Both the position numbers and the translations under genes were made by a program. 64,000 nt of DNA, from sequence record NC_135729.1; one strand, written 5' to 3'. Below, piece after piece: positions 9,244 through 10,153 of the stretch. Positions within the stretch are counted from its first letter, which is position 1; each line of letters opens with the position of its first letter. Origin of the DNA: a phage. A model generated the notes under the pieces. That model was not told the origin of the DNA. It made no database searches and saw only the letters and a list, made by a program, of their open reading frames with translations.

Positions 9244-9320
9244 TGGTCTCCACGGAGTGATTCGAACACTCGACCTCCTGATCCCAAATCAGGCGCTCTA
9301 CCAAGCTGAGCTACGCGGAG
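9244..9320 (-). tRNA. tRNA-Pro (anticodon UGG)
   Basis: Cloverleaf read by eye on minus strand; anticodon loop UUUGGGA; T-loop TTCGAAT; C1:G72 pair; CCA encoded. Confidence 0.8.
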
Positions 9321-9331
9321 TATCTACTATT

Positions 9332-9406
9332 TGGTGGCCCTGGGTGGAATTGAACCACCGTCTGGCGATTATGAGTCGCTTGCTTGAACCTTCCAGCTAC
9401 AGGGCC
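9332..9406 (-). tRNA. tRNA-Met (anticodon CAU; could be Ile2/lysidine type)
   Basis: Acceptor GGCCCTG/CAGGGCC; anticodon loop CTCATAA; T-arm GGTGG-TTCAATT-CCACC; CCA encoded. Confidence 0.7.
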
Positions 9407-9407
9407 A

Positions 9408-9483
9408 TGGTGCTGATGGCAGGACTTGAACCCGCAACCTATTGATTACAAATCAATTGCACTACCAATTGTGCTACATCAGC
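9408..9483 (-). tRNA. tRNA-Thr (anticodon UGU)
   Basis: Acceptor GCTGATG/CATCAGC; D-arm GCAC-AATTGGTA-GTGC; anticodon loop TTTGTAA; CCA encoded. Confidence 0.8.
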
Positions 9484-9488
9484 AAAAA

Positions 9489-9587
9489 GGTGCTAGGCGG
9501 TGGAATCGAACCACCTATGTATTCAACGACTACCTCGTCTATTTTCAGGATTAAAAATCCTCGCCCTTGCCAAAGGGCTTACCTAGC
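9489..9587 (-). tRNA. atypical tRNA-like element (99 nt; candidate anticodon UUU)
   Basis: Canonical acceptor, D-arm, anticodon-like hairpin and T-arm (GGTGG-TTCGATT-CCACC), but about 29 nt separate anticodon stem and T-stem; ends in CC not CCA. Confidence 0.35.
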
Positions 9588-9685
9588 TCAATATGTTGAC
9601 CATGTTGCTAGTCGGCGATGACGACTGTAACATTTGATAATCCGGTTCTGCTTCCGGCTTTCGCTTAATTGCAAGGTCAACAATG

Positions 9686-9776
9686 TGGCGGAGAGTAATG
9701 GAATCGAACCATCATCGAGTCATCCTCAACGGGACGGTTTTCAAGACCGCTTGAGCACCATTGCTCCCTACCCTCC
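9686..9776 (-). tRNA. tRNA-Ser (anticodon UGA), type II
   Basis: Acceptor GGAGGGT/ACTCTCC; anticodon loop CTTGAAA; long variable arm; 91 nt; CCA encoded. Confidence 0.7.
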
Positions 9777-9891
9777 TTTATAAATTATACTGATAATGAC
9801 ACTGATTTTCGAGCAGTTAGTGACTAGTATAAACGACGATAAATATCAATGCCATTATCTGTATTATTTATGCATCTAAAAAATATAAATT

Positions 9892-9978
9892 TGGTGGGGA
9901 GTGGTGGAGTCGAACCACCCGAGTCGCAATGACAATAGATTTACAGTCTACACCGCTACCTCTACGGGATAACTCCCC
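9892..9978 (-). tRNA. tRNA-Tyr (anticodon GUA), type II
   Basis: Acceptor GGGGAGT/ACTCCCC; anticodon loop CTGTAAA; T-arm GGTGG-TTCGACT-CCACC; 87 nt; CCA encoded. Confidence 0.75.
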
Positions 9979-9982
9979 AATT

Positions 9983-10057
9983 TGGCACCCCGTACTGGAC
10001 TCGAACCAGTGTCAACGGCTTAGAAGGCCGCTGCTTTATCCACTAAGCTAACAGGGC
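9983..10057 (-). tRNA. tRNA-Arg (anticodon UCU)
   Basis: D-arm GCTT-AGTGGATA-AAGC; anticodon loop CTTCTAA; T-arm ACTGG-TTCGAGT-CCAGT; CCA encoded. Confidence 0.75.
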
Positions 10058-10153
10058 ACTGGGTGGCTTTCTTTTACACCTTAGCCGCCAGAAAAGGTGG
10101 GAGACCATGTTTACAATATTACACTGTTAAGCAAAGTTTGTCAAGAAAATATT

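Follow-up and report, generated by a model that had tools for sequence, protein, structure and literature searches.

A conserved tRNA-shaped RNA with an extra hairpin in the tRNA clusters of rV5-like and other phages

The cleavage of tRNA is a major antiphage strategy, used by PrrC, PARIS, retron-Eco7, Schlafen, OLD and Cas12a3, and phage tRNAs are increasingly reinterpreted as countermeasures to it. The variable region of a tRNA comprises 4–5 nt in class I and about 13–21 nt, 1–2 of them unpaired, in class II. Both tRNA-targeting immunity and the role of phage tRNAs in counteracting it are established for T5 (PMC11464382, PMC11555353, PMC12409363), where tRNA-Lys(UUU), tRNA-Thr and tRNA-Asn variants neutralise PARIS (PMC11464382, PMC12409363) and tRNA-Tyr acts against retron-Eco7 (PMC11555353). 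Outside phages, the odd predicted tRNA of Bacillus cereus, tRNA-Other, is reported to be non-translational and to have a regulatory phenotype (PMC3399842).

Here we describe a tRNA-shaped RNA, designated X, in the tRNA cluster of an rV5-like coliphage (Vequintavirus), the source of the 64,000-nt stretch of DNA that was analysed (the window). In the direction of transcription, the cluster comprises tRNA-Arg(UCU), tRNA-Tyr, tRNA-Ser(UGA), a spacer, X, tRNA-Thr(UGU), tRNA-Met/Ile(CAU) and tRNA-Pro(UGG). The promoter-like site upstream corresponds to P(tRNA) in the rV5 annotation. There is no ATG-start ORF over X, and the ORFs overlapping the tRNA cluster are all of 62 aa or less. The features of the locus are as follows.

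10116–10144, minus strand: sigma-70-type promoter-like site, TTGACA-17-TAATAT, upstream of the cluster (consensus match only)
9244–10057, minus strand: tRNA cluster around X (ARAGORN and the rV5 annotation)
9686–9776, within the cluster: tRNA-Ser, neighbour of X (ARAGORN)
9408–9483, within the cluster: tRNA-Thr, neighbour of X (ARAGORN)
9489–9587, minus strand: gene X, tRNA-shaped RNA of 99 nt, read from 9587 to 9489
9581–9587, minus strand: 5′ strand of the acceptor stem, GCUAGGU, pairing with 9492–9498
9563–9578, minus strand: D-arm, GCCC-UUUGGCAA-GGGC, three of its four stem pairs covarying
9547–9561, minus strand: anticodon-like arm, 4-bp stem AGGA/UCCU and 7-nt loop UUUUUAA (loop at 9551–9557)
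9516–9546, minus strand: variable region of 31 nt, made up of the strand G-AAAAUA, a hairpin and the strand GAAUACAUA
9525–9539, minus strand: extra hairpin GACGA-GGUAG-UCGUU in the variable region
9499–9515, minus strand: T-arm, GGUGG-UUCGAUU-CCACC, with a covarying pair 51:63
9492–9498, minus strand: 3′ strand of the acceptor stem, GCCUAGC
9484–9491, minus strand: A73 discriminator and CC (9489–9491), then a U5 spacer (9484–9488), followed by tRNA-Thr

The original prediction had placed between tRNA-Thr and tRNA-Ser an element with a paired acceptor stem, a D-arm, a UUU stem-loop and a T-arm, and all of these were found at 9489–9587 on the minus strand, flanked by the two tRNAs listed above. 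Its CC end, said to be unlike that of the six neighbours, was also confirmed: X lacks an encoded CCA and reads A73-C-C, whereas CCA is encoded in all six neighbouring tRNAs. The extra hairpin is likewise present, only the distance between the anticodon stem and the T-stem being 31 nt rather than about 29 nt.

Several features of X are those of a canonical tRNA: the 7-bp acceptor stem (including a U7·G66 wobble), the D-arm with G18G19, the T-arm with UUCRAUY and the 19:56 elbow pair are all present and covary. Alternatively, the D-arm can be drawn with six base pairs and a loop of only 4 nt (GCCCUU-UGGC-AAGGGC), which is the form adopted both in the Rfam tRNA-Sec alignment and in the minimum-free-energy fold, itself a cloverleaf with the extra hairpin (z = −3.8). 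A “swapped” tertiary pair A8:U14 was considered and set aside, the 6-bp D-stem (U14:A21, U15:A20) being simpler; the bases concerned are invariant, so that covariation favours neither reading. Where a canonical tRNA has a 5-bp anticodon stem, X has one of 4 bp flanked by G·G, the invariant G residues at 9562 and 9546 bracketing the arm; the UUU of the window loop occupies positions 34–36. [quoted passage not shown]

ARAGORN reported X as “tRNA-???” with a 4-base anticodon “atcc”. This anticodon was rejected because it needs an all-A:U alternative stem UUUU/AAAA that is not kept in homologues. The Rfam tRNA model (RF00005) did not report X in a standard full-window scan; in a permissive scan of 921 nt it gave X 31.0 bits against a gathering threshold of 29, with a 26-nt insertion and one stem position deleted. 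This small-region match had the same boundaries as X, so that the covariance model did not recast the element as a standard tRNA with different boundaries, the outcome named in the original prediction as its refutation, but scored it marginally as delimited here.

The family was defined by a score of at least about 70 bits with the family covariance model R1, by the signature G-[4-bp stem-loop]-G-AAAA..hairpin..AAUAC(A)UA-T-arm, and by location in a phage tRNA cluster. Its members score 70–120 bits vs. at most 27 bits for ordinary tRNAs at the same loci; for the window copy, which carries every signature element, R1 gives 106.1 bits (E-value about 5e-25 to 1e-24). Homologues come from over 190 phage records as well as from metagenomes, and their phage carriers belong to several groups of lytic enterobacterial phages, with representatives in the Vequintavirinae (Vequintavirus, Seunavirus, Mydovirus, Henunavirus), in phi92-like Justusliebigvirus and in one N4-like Salmonella phage (Schitoviridae), always in a tRNA cluster and usually 2–7 nt from the adjacent tRNA. 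The rV5-like carriers include ten or more phages of the BASEL collection, and X is also carried by the PVP-SE1 group and by phi92-like phages. A 19-base signature of X gave no match in the genomes of 185,579 bacterial and archaeal species, and no description of X was found in a full-text literature search or in the rV5 genome paper. GenBank records leave the copies unannotated, overlap them with a short protein-coding call or label them inconsistently (tRNA-OTHER, tRNA-Lys, tRNA-TERM, tRNA-???).

In 30 distinct X sequences, all 629 of 629 stem cells were paired, and 11 of the 21 stem pairs had changed on both sides; when the partner was shifted by 1–3 columns as a control, 32–47% were paired. 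The acceptor pairs 3:70, 4:69 and 6:67 covary, and in one sequence both partners of 1:72 differ; otherwise G1:C72 and C2:G71 are almost invariant. Covariation was also seen for pairs 27:42 and 30:39 (alignment columns) of the anticodon-like stem and for the T-stem pair 51:63 (U:A to C:G). It extends to the tertiary structure: the elbow pair 19:56 (loop G at 9570 and T-loop position 56 at 9508 in the window) switches from G:C to U:A, with D-loop G19 replaced by U together with T-loop C56 by A in 8 distinct sequences. The strands flanking the extra hairpin are near invariant across the family. As for the hairpin, an A:U pair becomes G:C in TH18 and Av-05, loop variants being GGUAG, GGAAG, GCUAG and AGCAG, and other lineages have four further hairpin types at this site. 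In 23 of the 28 genome pairs compared, conservation of the X core equals or exceeds that of the adjacent tRNA-Thr(UGU) (between the window and PVP-SE1, 83% identity for the X core and 64% for tRNA-Thr); for the anticodon loop and hairpin, the identity between the window and the other genera, TH18 excepted, is only 18–33%.

Complementary 4–5-mers in the loop and the hairpin were noticed by eye in Seunavirus (UCCA/UGGA), 4MG (GCCA/UGGC) and L050 (CAUCA/UGAUG). A loop–loop pseudoknot, in which the anticodon-like loop would pair with the extra hairpin, was set aside, such complementarity being absent, again by eye, from the window and from the lineages with the type-B hairpin.

These data bear on the suggestion that X is a tRNA pseudogene in decay that carries an insertion. 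Such a view could appeal to the non-canonical anticodon arm, the missing CCA in the window lineage, the marginal scores of tRNA finders and the inconsistent annotation, but a gene in decay would hardly keep every stem pair intact throughout 30 distinct sequences, show compensatory changes in 11 pairs and covariation in a tertiary one, match or exceed tRNA-Thr in core conservation in most genome pairs and persist in three distinct phage groups. We consider decay exceedingly improbable. The 99-nt element is real; it has not decayed, nor is it a lysine tRNA of the ordinary kind. Of the options put forward in the original prediction, that of a tRNA-derived structured RNA fits best, in the form of a discrete covarying family under strong purifying selection.

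Alternatively, X might work only in cis, as a structural module of the operon transcript: a processing “punctuation” mark, a stabilising element or something like a terminator. Its constant location inside tRNA clusters, 2–7 nt from a neighbour, would suit such a role, and the T-arm/acceptor helix with the U5 was indeed detected in a terminator scan of the window. However, RNase P and 3′ processing sites are already supplied by the flanking tRNAs, and a cis-module would need neither the conserved elbow pair, the invariant junction strands and the invariant AUCAA loop nor transfer as a unit into an N4-like phage, which makes this explanation decidedly improbable.

The anticodon-like loop of X is lineage-specific and mostly non-canonical, its 4-bp stem closing either a loop with A33 or one of 8 nt, and we therefore think that X is no standard decoder. 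The widespread form CAUCAAA (or UAUCAAA, AAUCAAG), with A33, occurs in six lineages; CCAUCCAG is found in Seunavirus and Mydovirus, UUUAUAA in TH18/Av-05, and UUUUUAA in Vequintavirus only. Orthologues of the window copy have either A33 (CAUCAAA) or loops of 8 or 6 nt. The closest relatives of the window copy, the sister clade TH18/Av-05, are 92% identical to it and share its hairpin type, but have UAU with C73 or U73. Other orthologues have UCA or UCC with U73, so a lysine anticodon and discriminator are not conserved. Discriminator A is confined to the UUU lineage, U being present in almost all others, and U73-CCA is encoded in relatives beyond the Vequintavirus/TH18 and Justusliebigvirus clades. 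Moreover, in PHB05, Eryne and L028 a canonical tRNA-Lys(UUU) is present alongside X in its CAUCAAA form. Because of the conservation and covariation, the lineage-specific loop and the separate tRNA-Lys, sequence comparison allows us to conclude that X is a selected, tRNA-derived RNA belonging to one strongly conserved, previously undescribed tRNA-shaped family, and that this family as a whole is not tRNA-Lys.

For the window lineage, a genuine, chargeable and decoding tRNA-Lys(UUU) is nevertheless a serious rival, which on sequence grounds we hold to be possible but doubtful. According to this explanation, modelled on T5 tRNA-Lys against PARIS, the extra arm and the 4-bp anticodon stem would make X insensitive to nucleases attacking host tRNA-Lys, and X would replace the host tRNA during infection. 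Bacterial LysRS recognises A73, U34, U35 and U36 (PMC9976931, Table 1), and the window copy, with U33, UUU, A37, A38 and A73, carries this full set; the “tRNA-Lys with an insertion” of the original prediction lacks support for the family, where UUU is limited to Vequintavirus and others have UAU, UCA or UCC, yet retains a basis in the window itself. For the rV5 record, several close relatives and the window cluster, neither annotation nor detection gives a tRNA-Lys other than X, whereas X-bearing phages with the CAUCAAA loop have one. Relatives also carry functional-looking tRNAs of unusual build, including a tRNA-Lys with a mismatched 27:43 pair (PHB05) and class I tRNAs (Asn, Glu, Cys) in which a long extra arm is combined with a normal anticodon loop; such an arm by itself is therefore compatible with decoding. 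The tRNA-Lys label was in fact given by the BASEL annotators and by tRNAscan-based pipelines.

Against this stand the 92%-identical sister clade, whose UAU with C73/U73 has neither Lys nor Ile identity, the A33 or 8-nt loops of the remaining family, an anticodon helix one layer shorter than the canonical one, and an unencoded CCA with a variable tail (ACC, ACA). Furthermore, nucleotides 30–40 of the window copy, GAUUUUUAAUC vs. GACUUUUAAUC in host tRNA-Lys, include the PARIS AriB cleavage-site motif U36-A-A-U-C, U16 also being present (PMC12409363). Since the AriB recognition sequence UAAUC is thus retained at positions 36–40, any resistance must derive from the body of X alone.

Another explanation, which we regard as improbable, is that X becomes charged but serves off the ribosome or as a recoding tRNA of low efficiency; its ancestral UCA form would read UGA or donate Gly or Cys elsewhere, the Lys-like loop of the window being derived. 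The A-U-C-A-A loop is invariant even between lineages that have diverged widely. Among bacterial identity determinants, those for Cys overlap with U73, C3:G70, C35 and A36, and those for Gly with U73, G1:C72, C2:G71 and C35. The best Rfam match of the Henunavirus X is tRNA-Sec (37.6 bits), with which it shares the 6-bp/4-nt D-arm and the long arm, and some copies were labelled “tRNA-TERM suppressor” by GenBank pipelines. However, the near-universal U33 is replaced by A33, the tRNA-Sec score lies below the gathering threshold of 47, the acceptor/T helix is 7/5 rather than 8/5, and position 73 is not G. In pEp_SNUABM_01, which has a UCA-form X, TGA terminates 18 of 49 long ORFs, so that an efficient opal suppressor is unlikely there; TGA is rare in PHB05 (2 of 44), but not consistently so across phages with UCA forms, and efficient opal suppression was rejected for these forms. 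A “shifty” tRNA for tail-chaperone frameshifting was also discarded: the −1 frameshift site in the putative tail-chaperone gene pair of PHB05, U UUU UUC, is unrelated to the anticodon of X, and no homologue of this frameshift region was found in the window.

The reading we favour, with a probability of about 0.45, is that X is a functional, tRNA-derived, L-shaped RNA, a tRNA mimic that would mature with the cluster and engage a tRNA-recognising host protein. The comparisons establish that the family exists, how it is built, that it is under selection, where it occurs and how its loop varies; expression, processing, protein partner and decoy role are inferred. X would be transcribed together with the phage tRNA operon and excised in the same way as the neighbouring tRNAs, RNase P setting the 5′ end, the 3′ end being trimmed and, in the window lineage, the host CCA-adding enzyme completing it. 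Selection would keep the “top half” and core of the tRNA (acceptor stem, D/T elbow and G26/G44 junction) and also the two conserved single strands around the obligatory extra hairpin. As a mimic, X would be recognised by a tRNA-recognising protein of the enterobacterial host, most likely a tRNA-targeting defence nuclease or modifier that X would titrate or resist; in the window lineage, its arm may imitate host tRNA-Lys(UUU). The resemblance of the window loop to host tRNA-Lys and the context of tRNA-targeting immunity are consistent with mimicry. As to a phage-encoded partner, the “prolyl-tRNA synthetase” and “(p)ppGpp synthase” of pEp_SNUABM_01 gave no tblastn match in the window or in 50 kb of PHB05. 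A full-text literature search found no decoy RNA against a tRNase, and no reports were found of the expression, processing or binding of X in any phage.

Counting against the mimic, the anticodon and the discriminator change together as aminoacylation identity sets would lead one to expect: in Vequintavirus UUU is paired with A73, and in Seunavirus/Mydovirus [U/G]CC occurs with U73, G1:C72 and C2:G71, position 34 varying while C35 and C36 are constant. This co-change favours a charged and possibly decoding X. In addition, the AriB site is intact in the tRNA-Thr of the window phage, so that its lineage shows no obvious adaptation to PARIS. A bolder version of the mimic, which we find rather unlikely, would make X the first phage tRNA mimic with a constant selected core whose loop and extra arm, as exchangeable peripheral modules, are retuned in each lineage so as to bind, block or withstand particular tRNA-targeting immune effectors of the host. 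If it were true, X of the rV5-like coliphages would be a tRNA-Lys look-alike and an RNA-based anti-defence factor, moving horizontally with tRNA clusters between unrelated lytic phages.

X is a conserved, horizontally mobile, tRNA-shaped RNA in phage groups widely used as models and in therapy. Its recognition as one family corrects inconsistent GenBank annotations and adds an RNA family missing from Rfam. It also opens to genetic study the question whether phages use tRNA mimics or structurally “armoured” tRNAs, beyond the point-mutated ones, against tRNA-targeting immunity. If chargeable, X would extend the limits of functional tRNA shape to a variable region of 31–40 nt, a 4-bp anticodon stem and A33.

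Among known RNAs, class II tRNAs, tRNA-Sec and allo-tRNAs (Mukai et al., PMC5389517) share with X the L shape and a cloverleaf enlarged by an additional helical arm, which lies between the anticodon stem and the T stem. tRNA-Sec resembles X also in a D-arm readable as 6 bp with a 4-nt loop and, for many members of the X family, in UCA at positions 34–36; allo-tRNAs share a variable anticodon on a constant body. X differs from class II tRNAs in its 31–40-nt variable region, where the hairpin is flanked on either side by 7–9 conserved unpaired nucleotides, from all three in the 4-bp anticodon stem flanked by G·G and in A33 in most lineages, and in its acceptor/T helix of 7/5 vs. 8/5, 8/4 or 9/3. 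When the isotype criteria were applied (G73 and G2:C71 for Ser; A73 with core or anticodon elements for Leu and Tyr), the Ser, Leu and Tyr rule sets were excluded by U73/A73 together with C2:G71. The latter, near invariant in X, counts among the listed antideterminants for SerRS. U73 is present in most members, and none of the anticodon-like loops has an anticodon for Ser, Leu or Tyr. Membership of tRNA-Sec (RF01852) was likewise rejected: the best X is 37.6 bits vs. a gathering threshold of 47, X has a 7/5 helix, U or A at position 73 and A at position 33, and the window copy has UUU instead of UCA.

T4 rnaC (species 1) and rnaD (species 2) are, like X, small stable RNAs in a phage tRNA cluster, and in rnaC the T-arm is canonical and the closing stem resembles an acceptor. 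Their architecture is different, with no equivalents of the D-arm and anticodon arm, X being far more tRNA-like, and homology was rejected, R1 giving at most 7.3 bits on the T4 locus with filters off. The tRNA-like domains of tmRNA and YrlA also mimic the tRNA acceptor, T-arm and elbow and engage tRNA-binding proteins, whereas X has complete D- and anticodon-like arms and lacks an mRNA-like or Ro-binding module. The Rfam tmRNA model gave no match over X, and the sole YrlA match touching it (9429–9538, 17.4 bits vs. a gathering threshold of 69) spans X and tRNA-Thr. B. cereus tRNA-Other, again a tRNA-like RNA predicted as an odd tRNA, is bacterial and chromosomal and probably unrelated to X in sequence, and an oversized variable region is not reported for it (PMC3399842).

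T5 tRNA-Lys offers a further parallel, as a phage RNA with a tRNA-Lys(UUU) anticodon loop beside tRNA-Thr(UGU). The T5 tRNAs have a canonical shape and escape by the point changes U39A, A41C and U16C, whereas X retains U39 and U16 and differs in its body. By analogy with T5, a role for X in the conflict with tRNA-cleaving immunity is plausible.

The feature is real: X, the 99-nt tRNA-shaped RNA gene, is present at 9489-9587, as described in the original prediction, and lies on the minus strand. The window belongs to an rV5-like coliphage (genus Vequintavirus); over the 921-nt cluster region it shares 98.6-99% identity with its 40 best-matching records, among them rV5, FFH2, Murica and BASEL phages. 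The cluster is transcribed from the minus strand in the order promoter, tRNA-Arg(UCU), Tyr, Ser(UGA), 98-nt spacer, X, Thr(UGU), Met/Ile(CAU) and Pro(UGG).

Elements of the tRNA cluster (window coordinates)
10144-10116, minus strand: sigma-70-like promoter, annotated as P(tRNA) in rV5
9784-9812, minus strand: second promoter-like site TCGAAA-17-TATAAT, a consensus match only, within the 115 AT-rich nt that separate tRNA-Tyr from tRNA-Ser
9588-9685: 98-nt spacer, with a core of ~68 nt at 9603-9670 (minus strand)
9489-9587, minus strand (read from 9587 to 9489): X
9408-9483, minus strand: tRNA-Thr(UGU), with the host-like U36AAUCA41 intact and U16 kept
9332-9406, minus strand: tRNA with a CAU anticodon, called tRNA-Met in rV5 and nomo and tRNA-Ile (ATA) in BASEL genomes

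Given the promoter-like site between Tyr and Ser, the Ser, X, Thr, Met and Pro genes might also be transcribed apart from Arg and Tyr.

The 5′ part of X reads GCUAGGU-AA-GCCC-UUUGGCAA-GGGC-G-AGGA-UUUUUAA-UCCU-G-AAAAUA-GACGA-GGUAG-UCGUU- and continues as -GAAUACAUA-GGUGG-UUCGAUU-CCACC-GCCUAGC-A-CC, with UUUUU separating this end from the first base of tRNA-Thr. The original prediction was right on the acceptor stem, D-arm, T-arm, UUU loop, extra hairpin and the CC end in place of CCA; it also recognized that the anticodon-like stem and the T stem lie far apart, although the distance is 31 nt and not about 29. An equally good reading of the D-arm is a 6-bp stem closed by a loop of 4 nt, the form seen in tRNA-Sec. 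The minimum-free-energy fold is a cloverleaf with the extra hairpin (z = -3.8), and only short ORFs overlap the gene, none with an ATG start. ARAGORN reports ‘tRNA-???’ with an anticodon of four bases; the Rfam tRNA model did not pick up X in a normal scan of the full window, and in a permissive local scan scored it at 31.0 bits (gathering score 29) with unchanged ends.

X has no annotation in the rV5 record, and six tRNAs are given in the paper on that phage; the BASEL genomes name it ‘tRNA-Lys (AAA)’, and further records ‘tRNA-OTHER’, ‘tRNA-TERM’ or ‘tRNA-???(atcc)’. Outside Vequintavirus it is mostly unannotated or overlapped by a short protein-coding call; two ‘hypothetical protein’ CDSs lying wholly on X, SSE121 gp001 (locus L013:185-268) and Eryne CDS0271 (locus L084:1215-1316), are almost certainly spurious. 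About 18 GenBank records MG0656xx (‘Campylobacter phage C15, C2, A12a, D1 ...’) are 98-99% identical to rV5-like coliphages over the tRNA cluster; these ‘Campylobacter jejuni phage’ records bear no annotation and are probably mislabelled or contaminant assemblies.

Homologues were sought by BLAST, exact-pattern scans and the covariance model R1, trained on 16 hand-checked homologues. Members scored 70-120 bits, against at most 27 bits for all ordinary tRNAs of those loci. They occur in Vequintavirus (with the TH18/Av-05 clade), Seunavirus (PVP-SE1, SSE121, 4MG, Cronobacter phages), Mydovirus (Klebsiella phages), Henunavirus (Erwinia phages), phi92-like Justusliebigvirus (PHB05, Eryne), several uncultured phages of 140-150 kb and one N4-like podophage, Salmonella phage UTK0002 (Schitoviridae). 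Since none of 185,579 species genomes of bacteria and archaea matched a 19-base signature, X appears to belong to lytic phages. It has no family of its own in Rfam, and we found no mention of it in the searchable literature. X always lies inside a tRNA cluster, usually 2-7 nt from its neighbour, which is Thr, an Ile-like gene, Leu, Ser(UGA) or Asn depending on the lineage. Mobile elements evidently reshuffle the tRNA clusters of these phages. SSE121 carries a gene for an HNH homing endonuclease (L013:516-1010) directly downstream of X on the tRNA-Leu side, where PVP-SE1 (locus L007) has a gap of ~0.9 kb between X and tRNA-Leu; a covariance-model scan of phi1_175008, a relative of the lineage of locus L064, revealed no X.

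In 30 distinct sequences, all 629 of 629 stem cells are in standard pairing and 11 of the 21 stem pairs have changed on both sides; the covariation score was 0.476 vs. 0.03-0.10 for controls with partners slid by 1-3 columns, and the hand-made 16-sequence alignment gave the same picture. In the acceptor stem, G1:C72 and C2:G71 are nearly invariant, and 3:70, 4:69 and 6:67 covary freely. The elbow tertiary pair 19:56 covaries too (G19:C56 to U19:A56 in 8 distinct sequences), D-loop UUUGGCAA occurring together with T-loop UUCGAUU and D-loop UUUGUCAA with UUAGAUU, thus indicating that the L-shape is under selection. The core is conserved at least as well as the adjacent tRNA-Thr(UGU), whose function is not in doubt, in 23 of 28 genome pairs; for example, the core of the window is 83% identical to that of PVP-SE1 and 77% to that of UTK0002, vs. 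64% in both cases for tRNA-Thr(UGU). The kept pairing, the covariation and the core conservation exclude a decaying pseudogene; among the readings ranked below, a pseudogene comes last, as extremely improbable. The anticodon-like loop and extra hairpin show 18-33% identity between the window and genera other than TH18. Taken together, the results show X to be a discrete RNA gene of tRNA shape, under structural constraint and horizontally mobile. Selection on its core, elbow and acceptor end is as strong as in a working tRNA, and its two peripheral modules are retuned between lineages.

The variable region comprises 31 nt in the Vequintavirus/TH18 clade and 38-40 nt in all others. Two near-invariant single strands, G-AAAA(N)(N) on the 5′ side and (N)AAUAC(A)UA on the 3′ side, enclose a hairpin present in all members, of at least five types with compensatory changes inside each (GACGA/UCGUU to GACGG/CCGUU in the window clade). 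One type, with a 3-5-bp stem and a conserved 13-nt loop GAACUAACAGUAC, is common to Henunavirus, Mydovirus, the N4-like phage and two uncultured lineages; its GAA...AGUA arrangement presumably resembles the loop-E/sarcin-ricin motif. Most lineages encode U73-CCA, the exceptions being the Vequintavirus/TH18 clade (ACC, ACA, CAC, UAC) and Justusliebigvirus (UUC, UUU). Judging from its encoded end, X of the window would need the addition of the terminal A only. E. coli completes CCA-less phage T4 tRNAs, and this step is within its ability.

The best common reading of the anticodon-like arm is a 4-bp stem between two invariant G residues.

Loops of the anticodon-like arm
CAUCAAA, UAUCAAA or AAUCAAG (A33, then U-C-A-A; AUCAA invariant): Justusliebigvirus, Henunavirus, N4-like phage, four uncultured lineages
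CCAUCCAG (8 nt, or 6 nt with a 5-bp stem): Seunavirus, Mydovirus; C35, C36 and A37 fixed, position 33 A/C/U, position 34 U/G
UUUUUAA: Vequintavirus, including the window
UUUAUAA: TH18/Av-05

Since the loops are lineage-specific, and since PHB05, Eryne and contig L028 have a canonical tRNA-Lys(UUU) in addition to X, the family as a whole, judged by sequence, is not tRNA-Lys, and the UUU of the window is best read as a derived, lineage-specific state. There, UUU is accompanied by U33, A37 and a discriminator change from U to A, which together make up the identity set of bacterial LysRS; over nucleotides 30-40, X (GAUUUUUAAUC) and host tRNA-Lys (GACUUUUAAUC) agree at 10 of 11 positions, and this segment contains U36-A-A-U-C, the motif where PARIS AriB, a tRNA-cleaving defence nuclease, cuts tRNA-Lys. 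The joint change of anticodon and discriminator, the main support for any charged tRNA, keeps such readings alive, but the sister clade's UAU with C73/U73, together with A33 and the 8-nt loops, denies them first place: a chargeable, structurally protected tRNA-Lys in the window's lineage comes second, as a less likely but serious rival, and a charged non-ribosomal or weak recoding tRNA is quite improbable. As enterobacteria attack tRNAs in infection and phages answer with their own (PMC10264068, PMC11464382, PMC11555353, PMC12409363, PMC13056530), we tentatively rank first, with a probability of about 0.45, a non-decoding decoy or blocker of a tRNA-attacking effector. X would be co-transcribed and matured with the tRNA cluster and would act by tRNA mimicry on a host tRNA-binding protein. 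A cis-acting processing module is a slightly less probable reading than a non-ribosomal or recoding tRNA.

The extra arm of X should not be over-read, since related phages have class-I isotypes in which a long extra arm goes with an otherwise normal anticodon loop: the 85-nt tRNA-Asn GUU of PHB05 (locus L083:2182-2266) and an 89-nt tRNA-Glu (L028:9300-9388), both with a class-II-like arm and a normal 7-nt anticodon loop, and an 86-nt tRNA-Cys with a class-II-like arm (L028:6275-6360). Such arms on tRNA types that normally have short ones seem to be a recurrent feature of these phage groups, and might hinder nucleases docking on the anticodon-stem/variable-loop face. The 27:43 pair is mismatched in the canonical tRNA-Lys of PHB05. 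Compared with window 9408-9483, the AriB-used UAAU motif is destroyed at L083:2007-2082 and 2357-2431 of PHB05. In Seunavirus and Mydovirus, the gene directly upstream of X is a second tRNA-like gene with non-canonical anticodon loops (loci L007:1119-1194, L008:1118-1194, L010/L014/L015:1051-1125), reported by ARAGORN as ‘???’ with anticodons of 4 or 2 bases and ending in G73-CCA in every copy; its loop is AAGAUUC (A33, U37) in PVP-SE1, where it is annotated as tRNA-Ile(GAU), 8-nt ACAGAUCC in EspYZU12 and 6-nt ACGAUA in Mydovirus.

The spacer core may be another conserved RNA of phage tRNA regions. It is 87% identical to phage lambda 44866-44934 (unannotated, orf-64 to S) and P7 72368-72432, downstream of tRNA-Asn/Thr. 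Its hairpins are CCGG-AAGCAGAA-CCGG and G(U/G)CG-UCAUCGC-CG(A/C)C, the second with a compensatory change from U:A to G:C; the whole spacer is closed in the window by TGTTGACC/GGTCAACA (z = -3.2), and 9588-9685 has no match in Rfam.

Several known identities were tested against X. X does not fit the determinant sets of SerRS, LeuRS and TyrRS, C2:G71 being a listed SerRS antideterminant; tRNA-Sec is rejected by a score under threshold, the 7/5 helix, U73 and A33. An efficient opal suppressor is unlikely because TGA ends 18 of the 49 long ORFs of pEp_SNUABM_01 (18/65 in the window; 2/44 in PHB05, locus L085, 60001-110000). A frameshift helper was rejected, the putative tail-chaperone pair of PHB05 showing U UUU UUC, a -1 slippery site of the classical type, near L085 position 7845. 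No homology with T4 rnaC/rnaD was found. X is similar in outline to class II tRNAs, tRNA-Sec and allo-tRNAs but fails the defining features of each; we rate it as a phage-encoded tRNA-derived RNA that is not categorically new.
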